Assembly (NCBI GenBank): GCA_036261495.1
Contig: DATAKR010000058.1
Location: 1 to 48,328, forward strand
DNA: 48,328 bases
DNA from: Acidimicrobiales bacterium
GTDB lineage: Bacteria > Actinomycetota > Acidimicrobiia > Acidimicrobiales > CADCTF01
Direction of reading: 5' to 3'
Shown piece by piece: positions 1 through 5,568 of the stretch. Below the pieces are notes generated by a model. The model was not told the origin of the DNA and did not search any database. It worked only from the letters and a program-made list of their open reading frames with translations. Every line of letters starts with the position of its first letter. Position 1 is the first letter of the stretch. The translations under genes and the position numbers were made by a program.

Positions 1-1297
1 CGGCGAGGGACCGCTCGACCTCGGTCTCGACGCGAACCGCGAGCTCCGCTCGCGGGCCGCCGAGCGAGCGGGCGATGGAGCGCAGCATGACCGACCGCGG
101 GTCGGCGGTCCGGTACACGGGGTGCCCGAAGCCCATGATCGTCTCGCCCCGCTCGACGGCGTCGCGCACCCACGCGGCGGCGCGGTCCGGCGTTCCGATG
201 GCGTCGAGCGTCTCGAGGGCGCGGTCGATGGCGCCGCCGTGGAGCGGGCCCGACAGCGCCGAGAGCGCGGCCACGATGGCGCCCCCGAGGTCGGCGCCGG
301 TCGAGGTGACGACTCGCGACGTGAAGGTCGAGGCGTTGAACCCGTGGTCGAGGGCCAAGATCAGGTACTGCTCGAGCGCCCGGGCGAGTGCCGGCGAAGG
401 CTCCTGGCCGGTGAGCATGTAGAGGTAGCCGGCCGCGTGGCCGAGGTCGGCCCGGGGCGCGACCGGCTCCTCGCCGAGGCGCAGGCGGTGGAGGGCGGCG
501 ACGATCGTCGGGACGGCGGCCGTCAGGCGCAGCGCCTCGCGGCGGAGCCGATCCGACGGTGCGTGGAGCGACGGCTCGGGGGAGCTCAGCGCCGCGAGGT
601 GTGACATGGCGGTGCGCAGTCCGGCCATCGGCGTCGTCGCGGCCGCCAGTGCCGGGAGCACGTCGCGGACCCCGCTGGGAAGCAATCGCAGGGGCGCGAC
701 CTCGGCCGCGAACGCGTCTCGGTCGGCACCGGAAGGGAGATCACCGAAGAGCATGAGGTGCCACACGTCCTCGAACGCCCGCCGCTCGGCGAGCTCCGTC
801 GCGGAGTACTGGCGGTAGTGGTAGAAGCCCTCGGTGCCGCGGACGTCGCCGAGCGCGGTCTCGGCCACGATCACGCCCTTGAGCCCTGGCGGCGCGACGA
901 GCGCCGGCTCGCCGGCGGGCCGCAGGGCGGCCACCGCGACGAGGTCGCGCATCGACACGATGCCCTTGAACTCGCCGCCCGCCACCACCGGGATGTGCCG
1001 GTAGCCGTGCTCGCCGAGCTGCCGCCAGGCGTCGTCGAGCACCGTGTCGGGGGTGACGCAATCGGGATCCGGCGTCATCCACTCGCGGACCGTCGCCCGG
1101 AGCGGATCGGCGGTGTCGGCGGCCGCTCGGAGCAGGTCGCGCTCGGTGAGGATGCCGACCGGCCGGTTGCCCTCGACGACGACGACCGACCCCACCCCGC
1201 TCGCGTTCATTCGCTTCGCCGCCACGGCGAGCGCCTCGTCCTCGGTGGCGGTGAGCGCCGGCGTGGTCATCACGTCGGCGACGGTCCTGGTGGCCAT
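1..1297 (-). CDS. CBS-pair domain fused to citrate synthase (start inside window, 3' end runs off left edge)
   Basis: Manual minus-strand translation from ATG at 1297 gives MATRTVADVMTTPALTATEDEALAVAAKRMNASGVGSVVVVEGNRPVGILTERDLL..., a CBS pair. It continues GVIVAETALGDVRGTEGFYHYRQY...SGPLHGGA...GFGHPVYRTADPR, which are citrate synthase signatures. Absent from the ORF track because no stop lies inside the window. Confidence 0.8.
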   Translation of the reverse strand, partial: MATRTVADVMTTPALTATEDEALAVAAKRMNASGVGSVVVVEGNRPVGILTERDLLRAAADTADPLRATVREWMTPDPDCVTPDTVLDDAWRQLGEHGYRHIPVVAGGEFKGIVSMRDLVAVAALRPAGEPALVAPPGLKGVIVAETALGDVRGTEGFYHYRQYSATELAERRAFEDVWHLMLFGDLPSGADRDAFAAEVAPLRLLPSGVRDVLPALAAATTPMAGLRTAMSHLAALSSPEPSLHAPSDRLRREALRLTAAVPTIVAALHRLRLGEEPVAPRADLGHAAGYLYMLTGQEPSPALARALEQYLILALDHGFNASTFTSRVVTSTGADLGGAIVAALSALSGPLHGGAIDRALETLDAIGTPDRAAAWVRDAVERGETIMGFGHPVYRTADPRSVMLRSIARSLGGPRAELAVRVETEVERSLA

Positions 1298-1342
1298 GAC
1301 GTCCCCTCTCGTCCGGTCCGAGTCTCGCGCCACCGGCACAAG

Positions 1343-1380
1343 TTGATCAAGGTTGATTGCATCAAGGTTGATCACATCAA
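1343..1380. promoter_or_regulatory. AT-rich operator-like cluster of three palindromes: TTGATCAA, TTGAT-TGC-ATCAA, TTGAT-CAC-ATCAA
   Basis: Read directly: ...aagTTGATCAAggTTGATtgcATCAAggTTGATcacATCAAtatgat... It sits in the 95-bp divergent spacer between the two citrate-synthase paralogs. A TATGAT -10-like hexamer lies at 1381..1386. Confidence 0.6.
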
Positions 1381-1392
1381 TATGATGAGGGT

Positions 1393-2601
1393 GTGGCCGA
1401 GGGATGGATGACGACCGAGGAGGCGGCGGCGCGGCTCGGCGTGAAGGCGGAGACGCTCTACGCGTACGTGAGCCGGGGGGTGATCCGCAGCGAGCGCATC
1501 CCCGGGGAGCGCCGCAGCCGCTTCCTGCGCGCCGACGTCGAGCGCCTCGCCGGCCGCCAGCGGGGCGGCGGCCGGGCCGGCGGGCTCGAGATCGTCGTCG
1601 AATCCGAGCTGACCCTGCTCGATCCCACCGGCCGTCTCTTCTACCGGGGGTGGGATGTCGAGGACGCGGCCCGGTCGGCTTCGTTCGAGGACGTGGCCAC
1701 GTGGCTCTGGACCGGTACGCATGGCGACGTCCCCTTCGAGGCCTCGAAGGCCGCCCTCCGTGCCGCCCGGCGGGTCGTCAGCGCGCTGCCACGGGAGGCG
1801 CCGACGATCGACCGGCTGCGCGCCGTGGTCGTGGCGATCCGTGGCCTCGATCCACTCCGCGACGACCGGCGGCCGGTTGCGGTGGCGCTCACCGGCCGGA
1901 GCCTCATCGCCACGCTGGTCGACGCGCTGCCGACGCTGGCCGGCGGCGAGCCACCGGCGTCGGGATCGGTGGCGTCGCGGCTGTGGCCCCGGTTGTCGTC
2001 GCGCCGCGCCACCGCGGAGCGGGTGCGGCTTCTCGACGCCGCCATGATCATGCTCGCCGACCACGAGCTCGCGGCGTCGACCTTCGCCGCCCGGGTGGCC
2101 GCGTCGACGTGGGCCGATCCCTACCTCGTGGTCGAAGCGGGCTTCGCGGCCCTCGGCGGCCCGCTGCACGGCGGCGCGTCCGACCAGGCCCGACGGATGC
2201 TGCGCGATGCGTCGCGGTCGGGGGACGCCGCCGCGGTGGTCGGTGCCCGCCTGCGCGACGGCGAGCTGATCCCCGGCTTCGGGCACCGGGTGTACCTCGA
2301 CCGCGACCCACGGGCCGACCTGCTGCTCCGGCTCCTCGAGGACGCCGGCGCACTCGACCGCGTCGCCGCGGCGCGTGGCGTCCTCGAGACCATGCGCCGC
2401 CGCAAGCTCCCCTTCGCCAACATCGACTTCGCGCTGGCGGTGCTCGCCGAGGACAACGACATGATCGCGGGCGCCACCGAGATCACCTTTGCCATCGCCC
2501 GGGTGGTCGGCTGGCTGGCCCATGCCGTCGAGGAGTACGACCACCGCCTGCGGTTCCGGCCGAGAGCGGCCTATGTGGGCCCGCGCCCGGCCGGCGGCTG
2601 A
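1393..2601 (+). CDS. HTH (MerR/excisionase-type) domain fused to citrate-synthase-like enzyme
   Basis: ORF track 402 aa. The N-terminus TTEEAAARLGVKAETLYAYVSRGVIRSERIPGERRSRFLRADVERL is HTH_17-like. The remainder carries citrate synthase motifs GGPLHGGA, GFGHRVYLDRDPR and ANIDFAL. Alternative ATG start at 1408. Confidence 0.8.
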   Translation: MAEGWMTTEEAAARLGVKAETLYAYVSRGVIRSERIPGERRSRFLRADVERLAGRQRGGGRAGGLEIVVESELTLLDPTGRLFYRGWDVEDAARSASFEDVATWLWTGTHGDVPFEASKAALRAARRVVSALPREAPTIDRLRAVVVAIRGLDPLRDDRRPVAVALTGRSLIATLVDALPTLAGGEPPASGSVASRLWPRLSSRRATAERVRLLDAAMIMLADHELAASTFAARVAASTWADPYLVVEAGFAALGGPLHGGASDQARRMLRDASRSGDAAAVVGARLRDGELIPGFGHRVYLDRDPRADLLLRLLEDAGALDRVAAARGVLETMRRRKLPFANIDFALAVLAEDNDMIAGATEITFAIARVVGWLAHAVEEYDHRLRFRPRAAYVGPRPAGG

Positions 2602-2611
2602 CCGCGCCCGC

Positions 2612-3094
2612 TCAGGCGAACACCATCAGCGTGAGCCACTCGGCGACGCACGCCGGGCGCGACTCGTTCTCGATCTCCACGGTCACCGTGCGCGTCACCT
2701 GCACGGTGCTCGGATCCTTGAGTCGCACGTCGCTCACCACGCTACGGGCGCGGATCCTAGAGCCGACCTTCACGGGGCTCACGAAGCGCACCTTGTCGAA
2801 GCCGTAGTTGACGCCCATCATCAGGCCTTCCATGGCGCCACCGCCCTCGGTGCGCGGCACCGAGGCGGACAGGTGGGTGACGAGCGACAGCGTCAGGAAC
2901 CCGTGGGCGATGGTCGACCCGAAGGGTGTCGCCTTGGCGCGCTCGGGATCGACGTGGATGAACTGGTGGTCGTGGGTGACGTCGGCGAAGGTGTCGATGA
3001 GCGGCTGGTCGATCGTGAACCACTCGCCGGGGCCCGGGTCGTGGCCCACGCTTGCCTGCATCTGCTCCAGAGCCTTCTCGGCGTTGCTCGCCAT
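2612..3094 (-). CDS. MaoC-like (R)-specific enoyl-CoA hydratase/dehydratase
   Basis: ORF 2612..3115. Hot-dog fold motifs DVTHDHQFIHVDPERAKATPFGSTIAHGFLTLSL. Start placed at MASNAEK (3094). Confidence 0.75.
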   Translation of the reverse strand: MASNAEKALEQMQASVGHDPGPGEWFTIDQPLIDTFADVTHDHQFIHVDPERAKATPFGSTIAHGFLTLSLVTHLSASVPRTEGGGAMEGLMMGVNYGFDKVRFVSPVKVGSRIRARSVVSDVRLKDPSTVQVTRTVTVEIENESRPACVAEWLTLMVFA

Positions 3095-3191
3095 GGGTCT
3101 CCTCCTCGCCGGCACCGTCGGTCGGCCGGCCCCTTCGTAGCCGTCGCGGCGGCCCGCCCGCCAGCGCCGGCCCGGGGCGCCGGCCGCGTGA

Positions 3192-3824
3192 TCAGTTCGA
3201 TCCGGCCAGGGCGAGGAAGAGGATGGCCAGCACGACGACGCCGACCCTCACGACCTGCGACGGGAGCCGCCCACGGAGGAGCAGGAGGGCGCCGGCCCCG
3301 ATCACCACGACGGGCAGCAGGATGTTGGCGGCCACGTGCGGCAGCAGCCCGAGGAGGGCGACGCCGCCCGCCGTGGCGCCGACGATGCCGAAGAACGCGG
3401 CCGCGATCAGGGCCCACGTCGATCGGTGTGGGTAGCGCACGAACACGGCGAGGAACCCGAGCGCGGCGCCGAACGAGCTCAGCATGGTCGCCGGGACGCC
3501 GGTCATGACGCTGTGCACCAGCGCGCCGGCGCCGAACCCGGTCACCACCGCGCCGCCGACGAACCATCCGTAACGGCGCACCTGGAGCCAACCGGCCAGC
3601 AGCCCGGCGCCCACCGCGAACGGGCCGAAGTGGAGCGACAGGCCCAGGGCGCGCTCGATGAGGAGCGCCAGGCCGGCCACCACCAGGCCGGTGCCGACGG
3701 CGGTGCGCATCCGGCGCGAGCGGTCCTCCGGCGTGGGATGACCGGCGTCCGGGGGATAGAGGCCGTCGGTGTCGTCGGCCATGCCGAAGCCCGCATGGCC
3801 CGTGGAGAGGTCGCCGAAGCTCAT
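3192..3824 (-). CDS. hypothetical polytopic membrane protein
   Basis: 210-aa ORF with about 6 hydrophobic Gly/Ala/Val/Leu-rich segments. Same strand as the upstream two-component genes, directly downstream. Confidence 0.55.
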   Translation of the reverse strand: MSFGDLSTGHAGFGMADDTDGLYPPDAGHPTPEDRSRRMRTAVGTGLVVAGLALLIERALGLSLHFGPFAVGAGLLAGWLQVRRYGWFVGGAVVTGFGAGALVHSVMTGVPATMLSSFGAALGFLAVFVRYPHRSTWALIAAAFFGIVGATAGGVALLGLLPHVAANILLPVVVIGAGALLLLRGRLPSQVVRVGVVVLAILFLALAGSN

Positions 3825-3901
3825 GCCCGGGACGGTAGGCCCGTCGGCCCCCGATGTCGTCCGCCTGCGAGATGATTCGCGGGGTCGTCCGCGAGGACGA
3901 C

Positions 3902-4609
3902 CTACGACGAACCGGGCGGTACGAGGCCCGACTCGTACGCCACGACCACGGCCTGGACGCGATCCCGCAGACCGAGCTTGGTGAGGATGTGGGCGACGTG
4001 CGTCTTGACGGTGGTCTCGCTGATGAACAGCGCCTCGCCGATCTCCGCGTTCGTCGAGCCCTTGGCCACCTCGCGCAGCACCTCGACCTCCCGCTCGGTG
4101 AGCTGGTCGAGCGTGGGCCCGGCGCTCGAGCTCCGGGGCGCCGCCCGCGAGAACTCCTCGAGGAGTCGCTTGGTCATCCGCGGCTCCACCAGCGCGTCGC
4201 CTCGGGCGACGGCGCGGACGGCGGCGGCGAGGTCGTCGGGCGGTACGTCCTTGAGGAGGAAGCCGCTGGCGCCGGCCTTGACCGCGTTGAAGAGGTACTC
4301 GTCGAGATCGAACGTCGTGAGCACCAGCACCTTGTGGCCGTCGGCGGCGAGCTGCCGGGTGGCCTCCACGCCGTCGAGGCGCGGCATGCGGATGTCGATG
4401 AGCACGACGTCGGGTGCGAGCCGGCGGGCCTGCTCGATGGCCTCCACGCCGTCGGCGGCCTCACCGACCACCTCGAAGTCGTCCTCGGCCTCGAGGATGA
4501 GCCGGAAGCCGAACCGGACCAGCGCCTCGTCGTCGACGACGAGGAGGCGGGTGATGACGGCGCCGGATGGGGTCGGAGGGCTCGGAGGTGTCGAAGGCGT
4601 CGGGGTCAT
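3902..4609 (-). CDS. NarL/LuxR-family response regulator
   Basis: Receiver motifs LLVVDDEALVR, DVVLIDIRMP, LVLTTFD, plus the LuxR HTH LTEREVEVLREVAKGSTNAEIGEALFISETTVKTHV. ATGA overlap with the kinase stop. Confidence 0.9.
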   Translation of the reverse strand: MTPTPSTPPSPPTPSGAVITRLLVVDDEALVRFGFRLILEAEDDFEVVGEAADGVEAIEQARRLAPDVVLIDIRMPRLDGVEATRQLAADGHKVLVLTTFDLDEYLFNAVKAGASGFLLKDVPPDDLAAAVRAVARGDALVEPRMTKRLLEEFSRAAPRSSSAGPTLDQLTEREVEVLREVAKGSTNAEIGEALFISETTVKTHVAHILTKLGLRDRVQAVVVAYESGLVPPGSS

Positions 4610-5568
4610 GAGGCGAGCGGCACCGGGAACCGGGCGTGCACCCGCCAGCCGGGGCGACCCGCCCGCGGGCCGAGATCGAGCGTGCCACCTGCAGCGGCCA
4701 CGCGCTCGCGCATGCCGACGAGACCGTGGCCGTCACCCGCCGGCGGGGGCGGCACGTGCCCCGCGCCGTCGTCGTCGACGACGACGTCGACGCTGTTCGG
4801 GGCGTAGTCGAGCTCGATCCGCACGGTGGCCCGCGGGGCATGACGGACCACGTTGGTGAGCGACTCCTGCACCACGCGGTACGCGGCCAGCTGGACGCCC
4901 GGCGAGACGGTCGGGGGGATCTCGCCGATCACGTCGAGGTGGGCGTCGAGGCCGGCGGTGCGGAGCGTGTCGACGAGGTCGGGGATGTCGGTGAGCCGTG
5001 GAAGTGGAGCGGTCGGCGCCGCCTCGGGCGCCGGCGGCGGCGAGCCGGTCGTGCCCCAGCCCGGAGCCCGCGCCTGCCATCCGGATGGATCGCCGGAGGG
5101 CGGACGCGCCGCGTCGCCCAGCGAGGCGTCGGCGCCCCGGAGCACGGCCAGCAGGTTTCGCAGCTCGGTGAGGCTCTGGCGTCCGGCCTGCTCGGCGGCC
5201 GCCAGCGCCTGGTCCGCGAGCTCCGGTGAGCGAGGCGCCGCCCGCCGCGCCGCCGCGATCTGGATCGTCATGAGGCTCACGCCGTGGGCGACGATGTCGT
5301 GGAGCTCGCGTGCGATGCGCACCCGCTCCTCGGCCACCGCGAGCCGGGCGGTGCGGTGCTCCTCGATCTCGAGGCGGCGCTCCTCGATCTCGATGCGGCG
5401 GGCCCGACCGACCAGGAACTGGACCCCCACGCCGATCAGGATCAGCGGCCAGACGTAGACGAGCTGCACCGTCCAGAGGCCGGCCGACTCGAGCAGGAAG
5501 CCGGTGCCGATGAGCGCGAAGACGACGCCGGCGACGGCGCGCCCGCTCCTGACGTCACCGGCCGGCAC
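4606..5568 (-). CDS. HisKA_3-type sensor histidine kinase (LiaS/DesK-like)
   Basis: Two N-terminal TM helices, H-box RIARELHDIVAHGVS, and a C-terminal HATPase region (DDGAGHV...GHGLVGMRERV). Confidence 0.85.
   Translation of the reverse strand: MPAGDVRSGRAVAGVVFALIGTGFLLESAGLWTVQLVYVWPLILIGVGVQFLVGRARRIEIEERRLEIEEHRTARLAVAEERVRIARELHDIVAHGVSLMTIQIAAARRAAPRSPELADQALAAAEQAGRQSLTELRNLLAVLRGADASLGDAARPPSGDPSGWQARAPGWGTTGSPPPAPEAAPTAPLPRLTDIPDLVDTLRTAGLDAHLDVIGEIPPTVSPGVQLAAYRVVQESLTNVVRHAPRATVRIELDYAPNSVDVVVDDDGAGHVPPPPAGDGHGLVGMRERVAAAGGTLDLGPRAGRPGWRVHARFPVPLAS

Follow-up and report, generated by a model that had tools for sequence, protein, structure and literature searches.

A divergent citrate synthase gene pair in Acidimicrobiales with a candidate one-component regulator built on the citrate synthase fold

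Why a citrate synthase (CS) should carry a DNA-binding head of its own, and what that head might control, is the question raised by two divergent genes at the start of a 48,328-nucleotide stretch of DNA from an Acidimicrobiales bacterium (GenBank assembly GCA_036261495.1, contig DATAKR010000058.1; the stretch at its full length is hereafter called the window). In the product of gene A (2..1297, minus strand) a CBS pair is joined to a CitA-like citrate synthase, and gene B (1393..2601, plus strand, start codon GTG 1393) encodes a 402-residue protein in which a helix-turn-helix (HTH) domain precedes a CS fold, an architecture termed HTH-CS below. The two are separated by a divergent intergenic control region at 1298..1392, read directly from the letters and lying where the original prediction had placed the spacer. 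That prediction proposed a trigger-enzyme arrangement, with metabolite turnover coupled to transcription of the pair. We consider it probable that gene B encodes a one-component regulator on a CS fold, which would control the partner CS gene as well as its own. Domain architecture, the conserved pairing of the genes, an operator motif that travels with HTH-CS and residue conservation were computed directly, and it is from these that we infer DNA binding by the gene B protein, the sign of regulation and the identity of the ligand. The gene A/B module is real and conserved, has no published description in the literature searched and most likely belongs among the enzyme-derived regulators; full-text literature searches returned no functional account of either fusion, in keeping with what the original prediction had supposed.

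Residues 5–56 of gene B (1405..1560, plus strand) form a winged HTH of the excisionase/MerR_1/HTH_17 type, the head that had been proposed from the letters. This assignment follows from HTH_17 (PF12728; 37.8 bits, cut-off 27), MerR_1 (27.9 bits, cut-off 21.6) and TIGR01764 ‘excise’ (38.6 bits, cut-off 28.8), and from an AlphaFold2 (AF2) model with the order strand-helix-helix-strand-strand-helix (E5-7, H8-15, H19-27, E33-35, E42-45, H46-55), whereas the strict MerR family model PF00376 gives 21.8 bits against a cut-off of 28.2. The 56 N-terminal residues thus resemble the small winged-HTH proteins of the excisionase/MerR_1/BldC kind, both in scoring above model cut-offs and in showing the expected secondary structure. 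A Gly-rich flexible linker follows (residues 57–64; 1561..1584, plus strand) with a predicted local distance difference test score (pLDDT) below 50 in the AF2 model, and then a CS-fold body (1591..2565, plus strand; PF00285, 223.5 bits, cut-off 27, E 5.4e-66, profile positions 6–357), which holds H259, H298 and D345. The catalytic signatures named from the letters are all present, GPLHGGA at residues 256–262, GFGHRVY at 295–301 and NIDFAL at 343–348. The AF2 model as a whole has a pLDDT of 89 and consists of winged HTH, disordered linker and CS body, the last of which finds PrpC and CitA of M. tuberculosis as its top Foldseek matches. No coiled coil follows the HTH in this model. In lacking both a coiled-coil dimerisation helix and a C-terminal effector domain the protein differs from MerR, and dimerisation would have to come from the CS body. 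In a two-copy model of gene B the interface score (ipSAE) was 0.84 against 0.00 for the best control, passing a mark that 20 of 30 proteins with solved pair structures attain, as does 1 of 23 whose structures are of single chains; since CS dimers have already been solved, this pass may stem from known structures, and it indicates likeness, not binding. The model runs have at least 82% of contacts in common (partner pLDDT 87), with a predicted interface made of residues 63–75, 120–157, 225–260 and 384–400. Because this interface starts directly past the linker, it would keep both HTH heads near the dyad, an arrangement suited to short palindromes.

Palindromes of this kind occur in the spacer. 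A candidate operator at 1343..1380 comprises three AT-rich palindromes of the TTGAT-N3-ATCAA type with a 15-bp period, namely TTGATCAA at 1343–1350, TTGATTGCATCAA at 1353–1365 and TTGATCACATCAA at 1368–1380, and holds a 15-nt direct repeat (15-bp spacing) and a 14-nt inverted repeat. A tentative gene B promoter, read by eye on the plus strand, spans 1357..1386 (TTGCAT at 1357–1362, an 18-nt spacer and TATGAT at 1381–1386), such that palindrome 3 fills the promoter spacer and palindrome 2 overlaps the −35 box. GTG 1393 sits 7 nt past the −10 box, which suggests that the gene B mRNA is leaderless. In relatives the same palindrome is surrounded by TTGTCA-18-TATATA, and in several of them it is located between −35-like and −10-like hexamers. 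The apparent promoter spacers, in the window and in relatives, measure 17–18 bp as opposed to the 19–20 bp of MerR operators. The overlap of the palindromes with the tentative gene B promoter favours repression.

The operator motif is found 18–125 nt upstream of the HTH-CS gene in all 29 related loci and upstream of none of 19 CBS-CS genes from loci without an HTH-CS match (20 such genes were fetched, with the N-terminus placeable in 19), a contrast that overstates the statistical support because related genomes are non-independent samples. From 34 sites in 27 loci the family operator consensus reads TCAA-cg-TTGATC-nnA-TCAA. The motif is also kept in four HTH-CS loci that have no partner CS (L018, L028, L031 and L033); being kept where the partner gene is missing, it belongs to the regulator gene and not to the enzyme gene. 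Many CBS-CS genes in the loci without an HTH-CS match (L036–L054) have a TAnnnT-type box (TAGGAT, TAAGAT, TACACT, TAGACT) shortly before the start codon, often after GG, which suggests that these genes use simple, operator-free, short-leader promoters.

Within genomes the motif is rare. The 13-bp motif TTGAY-N3-RTCAA occurs twice in the 2.64-Mb assembly, both times in the spacer, and a search of ten genomes with the composite pattern TCAA-N2-TTGA-N4-6-TCAA matched only HTH-CS loci plus two other sites, compared with one match for a reversed control pattern. Six of the ten genomes gave no match to the composite pattern because their operators deviate from its exact form. An extra site in genome G073 was considered as a regulon target and set aside, as it lies inside an open reading frame (ORF) and is probably a chance match. 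Two more strict palindromes, TTGATCGCATCAA and TTGATCTGATCAA, stand outside the HTH-CS locus of a complete relative (G150:C1:3566539 and G150:C1:604525, respectively). In the genome of the window itself a near-copy of the operator, TCAACGTTGATGGCAATCAA, is present on another contig (C180:1074-1093, locus L158; gap of about 70 nt). On the gene strand it reads AAGGTTGATTGCCATCAACGTTGACAC, set apart from AAGGTTGATTGCATCAAGGTTGATCAC of the window by four substitutions and an inserted base, and it precedes by 32–51 nt the likely ATG (1042, minus strand) of a gene whose product joins an N-terminal part of 210 residues, unassigned, to a family III CoA-transferase domain. This gene may be a second target of the regulator, as a lead from a single genome; no such site occurs upstream of its nearest CoA-transferase homologues (37% identity) in two relatives.

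That the pair is no accident of one assembly follows from its distribution. The CBS-CS and HTH-CS architectures are each found in thousands of database proteins, and the recurrence of same-sized contigs in both match lists suggests that genes A and B are often co-located. Full-length HTH-CS is present in about 35 of 151 genomes of the same order, a tally that takes in the unpublished genomes G143, G042 and G065, from which no locus, motif count or tree row was drawn. A divergent CS gene lies directly upstream of HTH-CS in 25 of 30 related loci, counting one in which the partner is cut by the contig end (L024); the other five comprise four without a partner and one in which a contig end truncates the HTH-CS gene. 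Together these numbers dispose of the concern, raised with the original prediction, that the fusions might be assembly or annotation artefacts. About half of the Acidimicrobiales partner CS genes carry a CBS pair and about half do not. Beyond this order HTH-CS occurs in Pseudomonadota (Caulobacteraceae, Pseudomonas, Novosphingobium, Bradyrhizobium and others), Acidobacteriota and Chloroflexota, and in a quick maximum-likelihood IQ-TREE run all HTH-CS form a single clade (SH-aLRT 100) apart from partner and canonical CS, with partners bearing and lacking CBS intermixed inside one CitA-like clade. HTH-CS being one multi-phylum clade, the module is old and the CBS pair an optional addition, and a recent local tandem duplication, considered as the origin of the pair, is ruled out by the same clade. 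The recognition helix TLYAYVSRG/K and the wing residues of the HTH are near-invariant between Acidimicrobiia and Pseudomonadota members, and a TCAA-N2-TTGA or TTGATCAA core is found upstream of 43 of 80 HTH-CS genes from Pseudomonadota, Acidobacteriota and Chloroflexota.

The partner, gene A, is truncated. Between 1375 and the first base of the window its frame contains no stop, and its start is best placed at ATG 1297, both on the evidence of a database protein (P0123) of 432 residues with 100% identity and with a Shine-Dalgarno-like GAGAGGGG 6 nt upstream on the minus strand. As the window opens at contig base 1 the 3′ end is missing: 432 of about 508 codons are present, and compared with full-length relatives of about 508 residues the protein lacks some 76 residues at its C-terminus, the third catalytic position among them. 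A CBS pair (Bateman module; residues 32–147, 935..1282, minus strand) is matched by PF00571 in two stretches with 98.3 bits, as had been anticipated, and probably adds adenine-nucleotide control of the enzyme itself. The CS domain (11..886, minus strand; PF00285, 293.5 bits, cut-off 27, E 2.9e-87, profile positions 1–297 of 357) contains GPLHGGA and GFGHPVY, again the signatures named from the letters, and both catalytic His residues. Of 116 full-length relatives, 115 have Glu in place of the catalytic Asp, a position that for gene A lies past the contig end; Bacillus subtilis CitA has Glu there too, and for a full-length homologue B. subtilis citrate synthase 1 (2C6X) is the best match of known structure. 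In its truncated form gene A scores 278.1 bits with TIGR01800 and stays below the equivalog cut-off of 421.3.

Taken together these data suggest the following scheme. The gene B protein would dimerise via the usual CS large-domain interface, placing its two winged-HTH heads, on short Gly linkers, near the two-fold axis, from where they would read the tandem TTGAT-N3-ATCAA / TCAA-N2-TTGA palindromes at 1343..1380. With the palindromes overlapping the −35 box and spacer of the putative gene B promoter and lying upstream of the divergent gene A, binding would most likely repress both genes. A ligand in the oxaloacetate/citrate pocket would induce the open-to-closed movement of the CS fold and so alter DNA affinity, by which the supply of tricarboxylic acid (TCA) cycle acids would be coupled to expression of the accessory CitA-like citrate synthase.

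A difficulty for this scheme lies in the catalytic residues of gene B. H259, H298 and D345, which we take to correspond to pig citrate synthase H274, H320 and D375, are invariant in 120 of 120 close relatives, so that the triad does survive careful alignment as the original prediction had it; 29 more distant relatives all share H259 and D345, and 28 of them also H298, which is Gln in the remaining one. A pure ligand sensor needs no triad, and the gene B protein may therefore be chiefly an enzyme. Several further points weigh against a sensing regulator at this locus. A strict sigma-70 promoter and terminator scan of 1200..1500 found nothing, so that the overlap of promoter and operator is one we infer; the AT-rich boxes could in part be promoter elements instead of a repressor site; the assembly is 69.6% complete, for which reason the lack of further operator sites or of a canonical gltA in it carries little weight; and no published DNA-binding test of any HTH-CS family member was found in the literature searched, to which the shared ancestry of the loci compared is to be added. 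Were gene B a true trigger enzyme, it would be a working citrate or 2-methylcitrate synthase whose HTH autoregulates the pair by turnover, as in PutA. The triad speaks for this, as do the oxaloacetate-site residues H224, R307 and R389 (invariant in the 120 close relatives and kept in the 29 more distant ones), the full-length CS-domain match and the fold matches to solved PrpC and CitA, and the operator evidence is equally compatible with it. Yet gene B remains far below the NCBIfam equivalog and subfamily cut-offs (TIGR01800, its best, 180.6 against 421.3 bits; PRK12350, 175.5 against 332), all 120 HTH-CS relatives have Ala in place of the Asn in the DHE-x-N-A-S-T motif, and a position that is Arg or Lys in 43 of 44 enzyme-type CS (partner plus canonical), presumably equivalent to the CoA-phosphate contact R324 of the pig enzyme, is variable or Pro in HTH-CS. 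In addition, a proteobacterial HTH-CS subclade (P0243–P0362; L070–L124; Caulobacteraceae, Steroidobacteraceae, Pseudomonas, Massilia and others, mostly without an adjacent CS gene) has the catalytic three replaced (R/K, A/S and A, respectively) and keeps the HTH, H224, R307 and mostly R389. By its residues this subclade looks like a pseudoenzyme sensor, and with the triad lost and the oxaloacetate-site residues kept, occupancy of the oxaloacetate/citrate pocket, not catalysis, would be the function common to the family. Catalysis by the Acidimicrobiia HTH-CS clade is possible on the residues it keeps, and we judge a switch driven by turnover unlikely. Of the trigger-enzyme proposal, then, control of the pair by the HTH fusion through the spacer agrees with the operator distribution, whereas the coupling to turnover is opposed by the Asn-to-Ala exchange, the variable Arg/Lys position and the triad-less sister subclade. 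Somewhat more doubtful still is an intermediate in which the triad-keeping regulator performs or begins the condensation, the flux of oxaloacetate and acyl-CoA, and not concentration alone, setting its DNA affinity, and in which it may exchange subunits with its partner, presumably a Glu variant, in mutual titration; given the near-copy before the CoA-transferase gene, the module would in that case be linked to a side pathway of acyl-CoA/dicarboxylate metabolism and not to the TCA cycle proper.

A very unlikely explanation, in our view, is that the AT-rich boxes belong to an ordinary promoter or serve some other regulator, with the HTH of gene B playing no role in transcription of the pair. 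The boxes do resemble and overlap −35-like and −10-like hexamers, and in Streptomyces coelicolor a site for the response regulator MtrA has been placed between SCO5831 and SCO5832 (‘citA3/citA4’), treated there as divergent citrate synthases (2025, PMC12323332), so that other regulators can act on such spacers. Against this stand the palindromic and tandemly repeated nature of the element, its absence from the promoters of the 19 CBS-CS genes of the control set, its presence with HTH-CS genes that have no partner and the conservation of its core across phyla alongside the HTH recognition helix. Both subunits of a CS dimer contribute to its active sites, and this makes a heteromer conceivable, in which HTH-CS and partner CS, alike in their dimerising fold, form mixed dimers such that the enzyme titrates the regulator off the DNA or the regulator modulates the enzyme. 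Such an association would fit with the co-location of the two genes and their seemingly parallel diversification in the tree, and with the fact that partnered subclades keep the triad whereas the mostly partnerless subclade lost it. The CS domains are, however, only about 30–40% identical, and HTH-CS occurs without a partner both in the four operator-bearing Acidimicrobiales loci and in most proteobacterial loci, and we rate mixed dimers as the least probable of these readings. A CS-fold regulator reading its own operator remains our preferred explanation.

Several known systems share parts of this design. In MocR, GabR and PdxR a GntR-type winged HTH is followed by a flexible linker and a body of the fold-type I pyridoxal phosphate-dependent aminotransferase class. 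As in gene B, a whole enzyme fold behind an N-terminal winged HTH and flexible linker serves there as the sensing and dimerising module, with the residues of ligand chemistry partly kept; the two are unrelated in sequence, the gene B protein combining an HTH of the HTH_17/excisionase type with a citrate synthase, and in the gene A/B module the adjoining target is the gene of a paralogous real enzyme. In B. subtilis the minor citrate synthase gene citA is accompanied by the divergent gene for the LysR-type regulator CitR. The window resembles this arrangement in having the gene of an accessory CitA-type CS divergent from that of its own candidate regulator, and the full-length relatives of gene A have the Glu of CitA in place of the catalytic Asp; it differs in that the proposed regulator is an HTH_17-headed CS fold and in that the enzyme is fused to a CBS pair. 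PutA and BirA are trigger enzymes whose catalysis is proven and central to the switch. They too join a DNA-binding domain to an enzyme and autoregulate genes of the same pathway, but for gene B catalysis is at most predicted and a sister subclade lacks the catalytic residues. Adjacent CS-like gene pairs have been described before: next to the S. coelicolor pair mentioned above there are citB and citC of Caulobacter crescentus, where CitB, but not CitC, complements E. coli gltA (Bergé et al. 2020, PMC7083601). Both pairs were considered as candidate HTH-CS members; neither paper (PMC7083601, PMC12323332) mentions an HTH, and three Caulobacter loci that we fetched contain HTH-CS without an adjacent CS. 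A paper on the reversed oxidative TCA cycle (roTCA) in Acidimicrobiia makes no mention of these citrate synthase paralogues.

As to the setting, window base 1 coincides with the end of a contig (C110) in an assembly of 206 contigs, and the window has a G+C content of about 74%. The top matches of the proteins of genes A and B in a database protein search are from Acidimicrobiales. DNA near-identical to that of the window is present in soil metagenome DNA runs from three studies, and no RNA run is among the sequencing runs listed as containing it. A canonical 430-residue citrate synthase, which nearly all related genomes possess, was not found in the 69.6%-complete assembly. Downstream of gene B and convergent with it, with 10 bp separating the stop codons, lies a MaoC-like (R)-hydratase/hotdog gene (2612..3115, minus strand), followed at 3192–5568 (minus strand) by genes for a 210-residue membrane protein without a Pfam match, a NarL/GerE-type response regulator and a HisKA_3 kinase with a LiaF-like transmembrane region. 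The position of the MaoC-like gene next to the CS module is not conserved in 14 other loci, and the membrane protein and LiaF-like two-component pair give no sign of a tie to the module. ORF clustering over about 8 kb in 15 loci left the two CS genes as the only conserved ones, which rules out the MaoC-like gene as part of the module and makes it and the two-component pair bystanders.

The TCA cycle begins with citrate synthase, and a family of regulators on its fold would, if true, widen the range of sensor folds known from bacterial one-component regulators. HTH-CS genes carry the name ‘citrate synthase’ in many database sources, which inflates CS copy numbers in metabolic reconstructions, including those of roTCA-type carbon fixation in Acidimicrobiia. 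With a short, very specific operator and a compact architecture, a member of the family could yield an oxaloacetate or citrate biosensor. Spanning triad-keeping to triad-less forms, the family offers a natural series in which the evolution from enzyme to sensor becomes testable.

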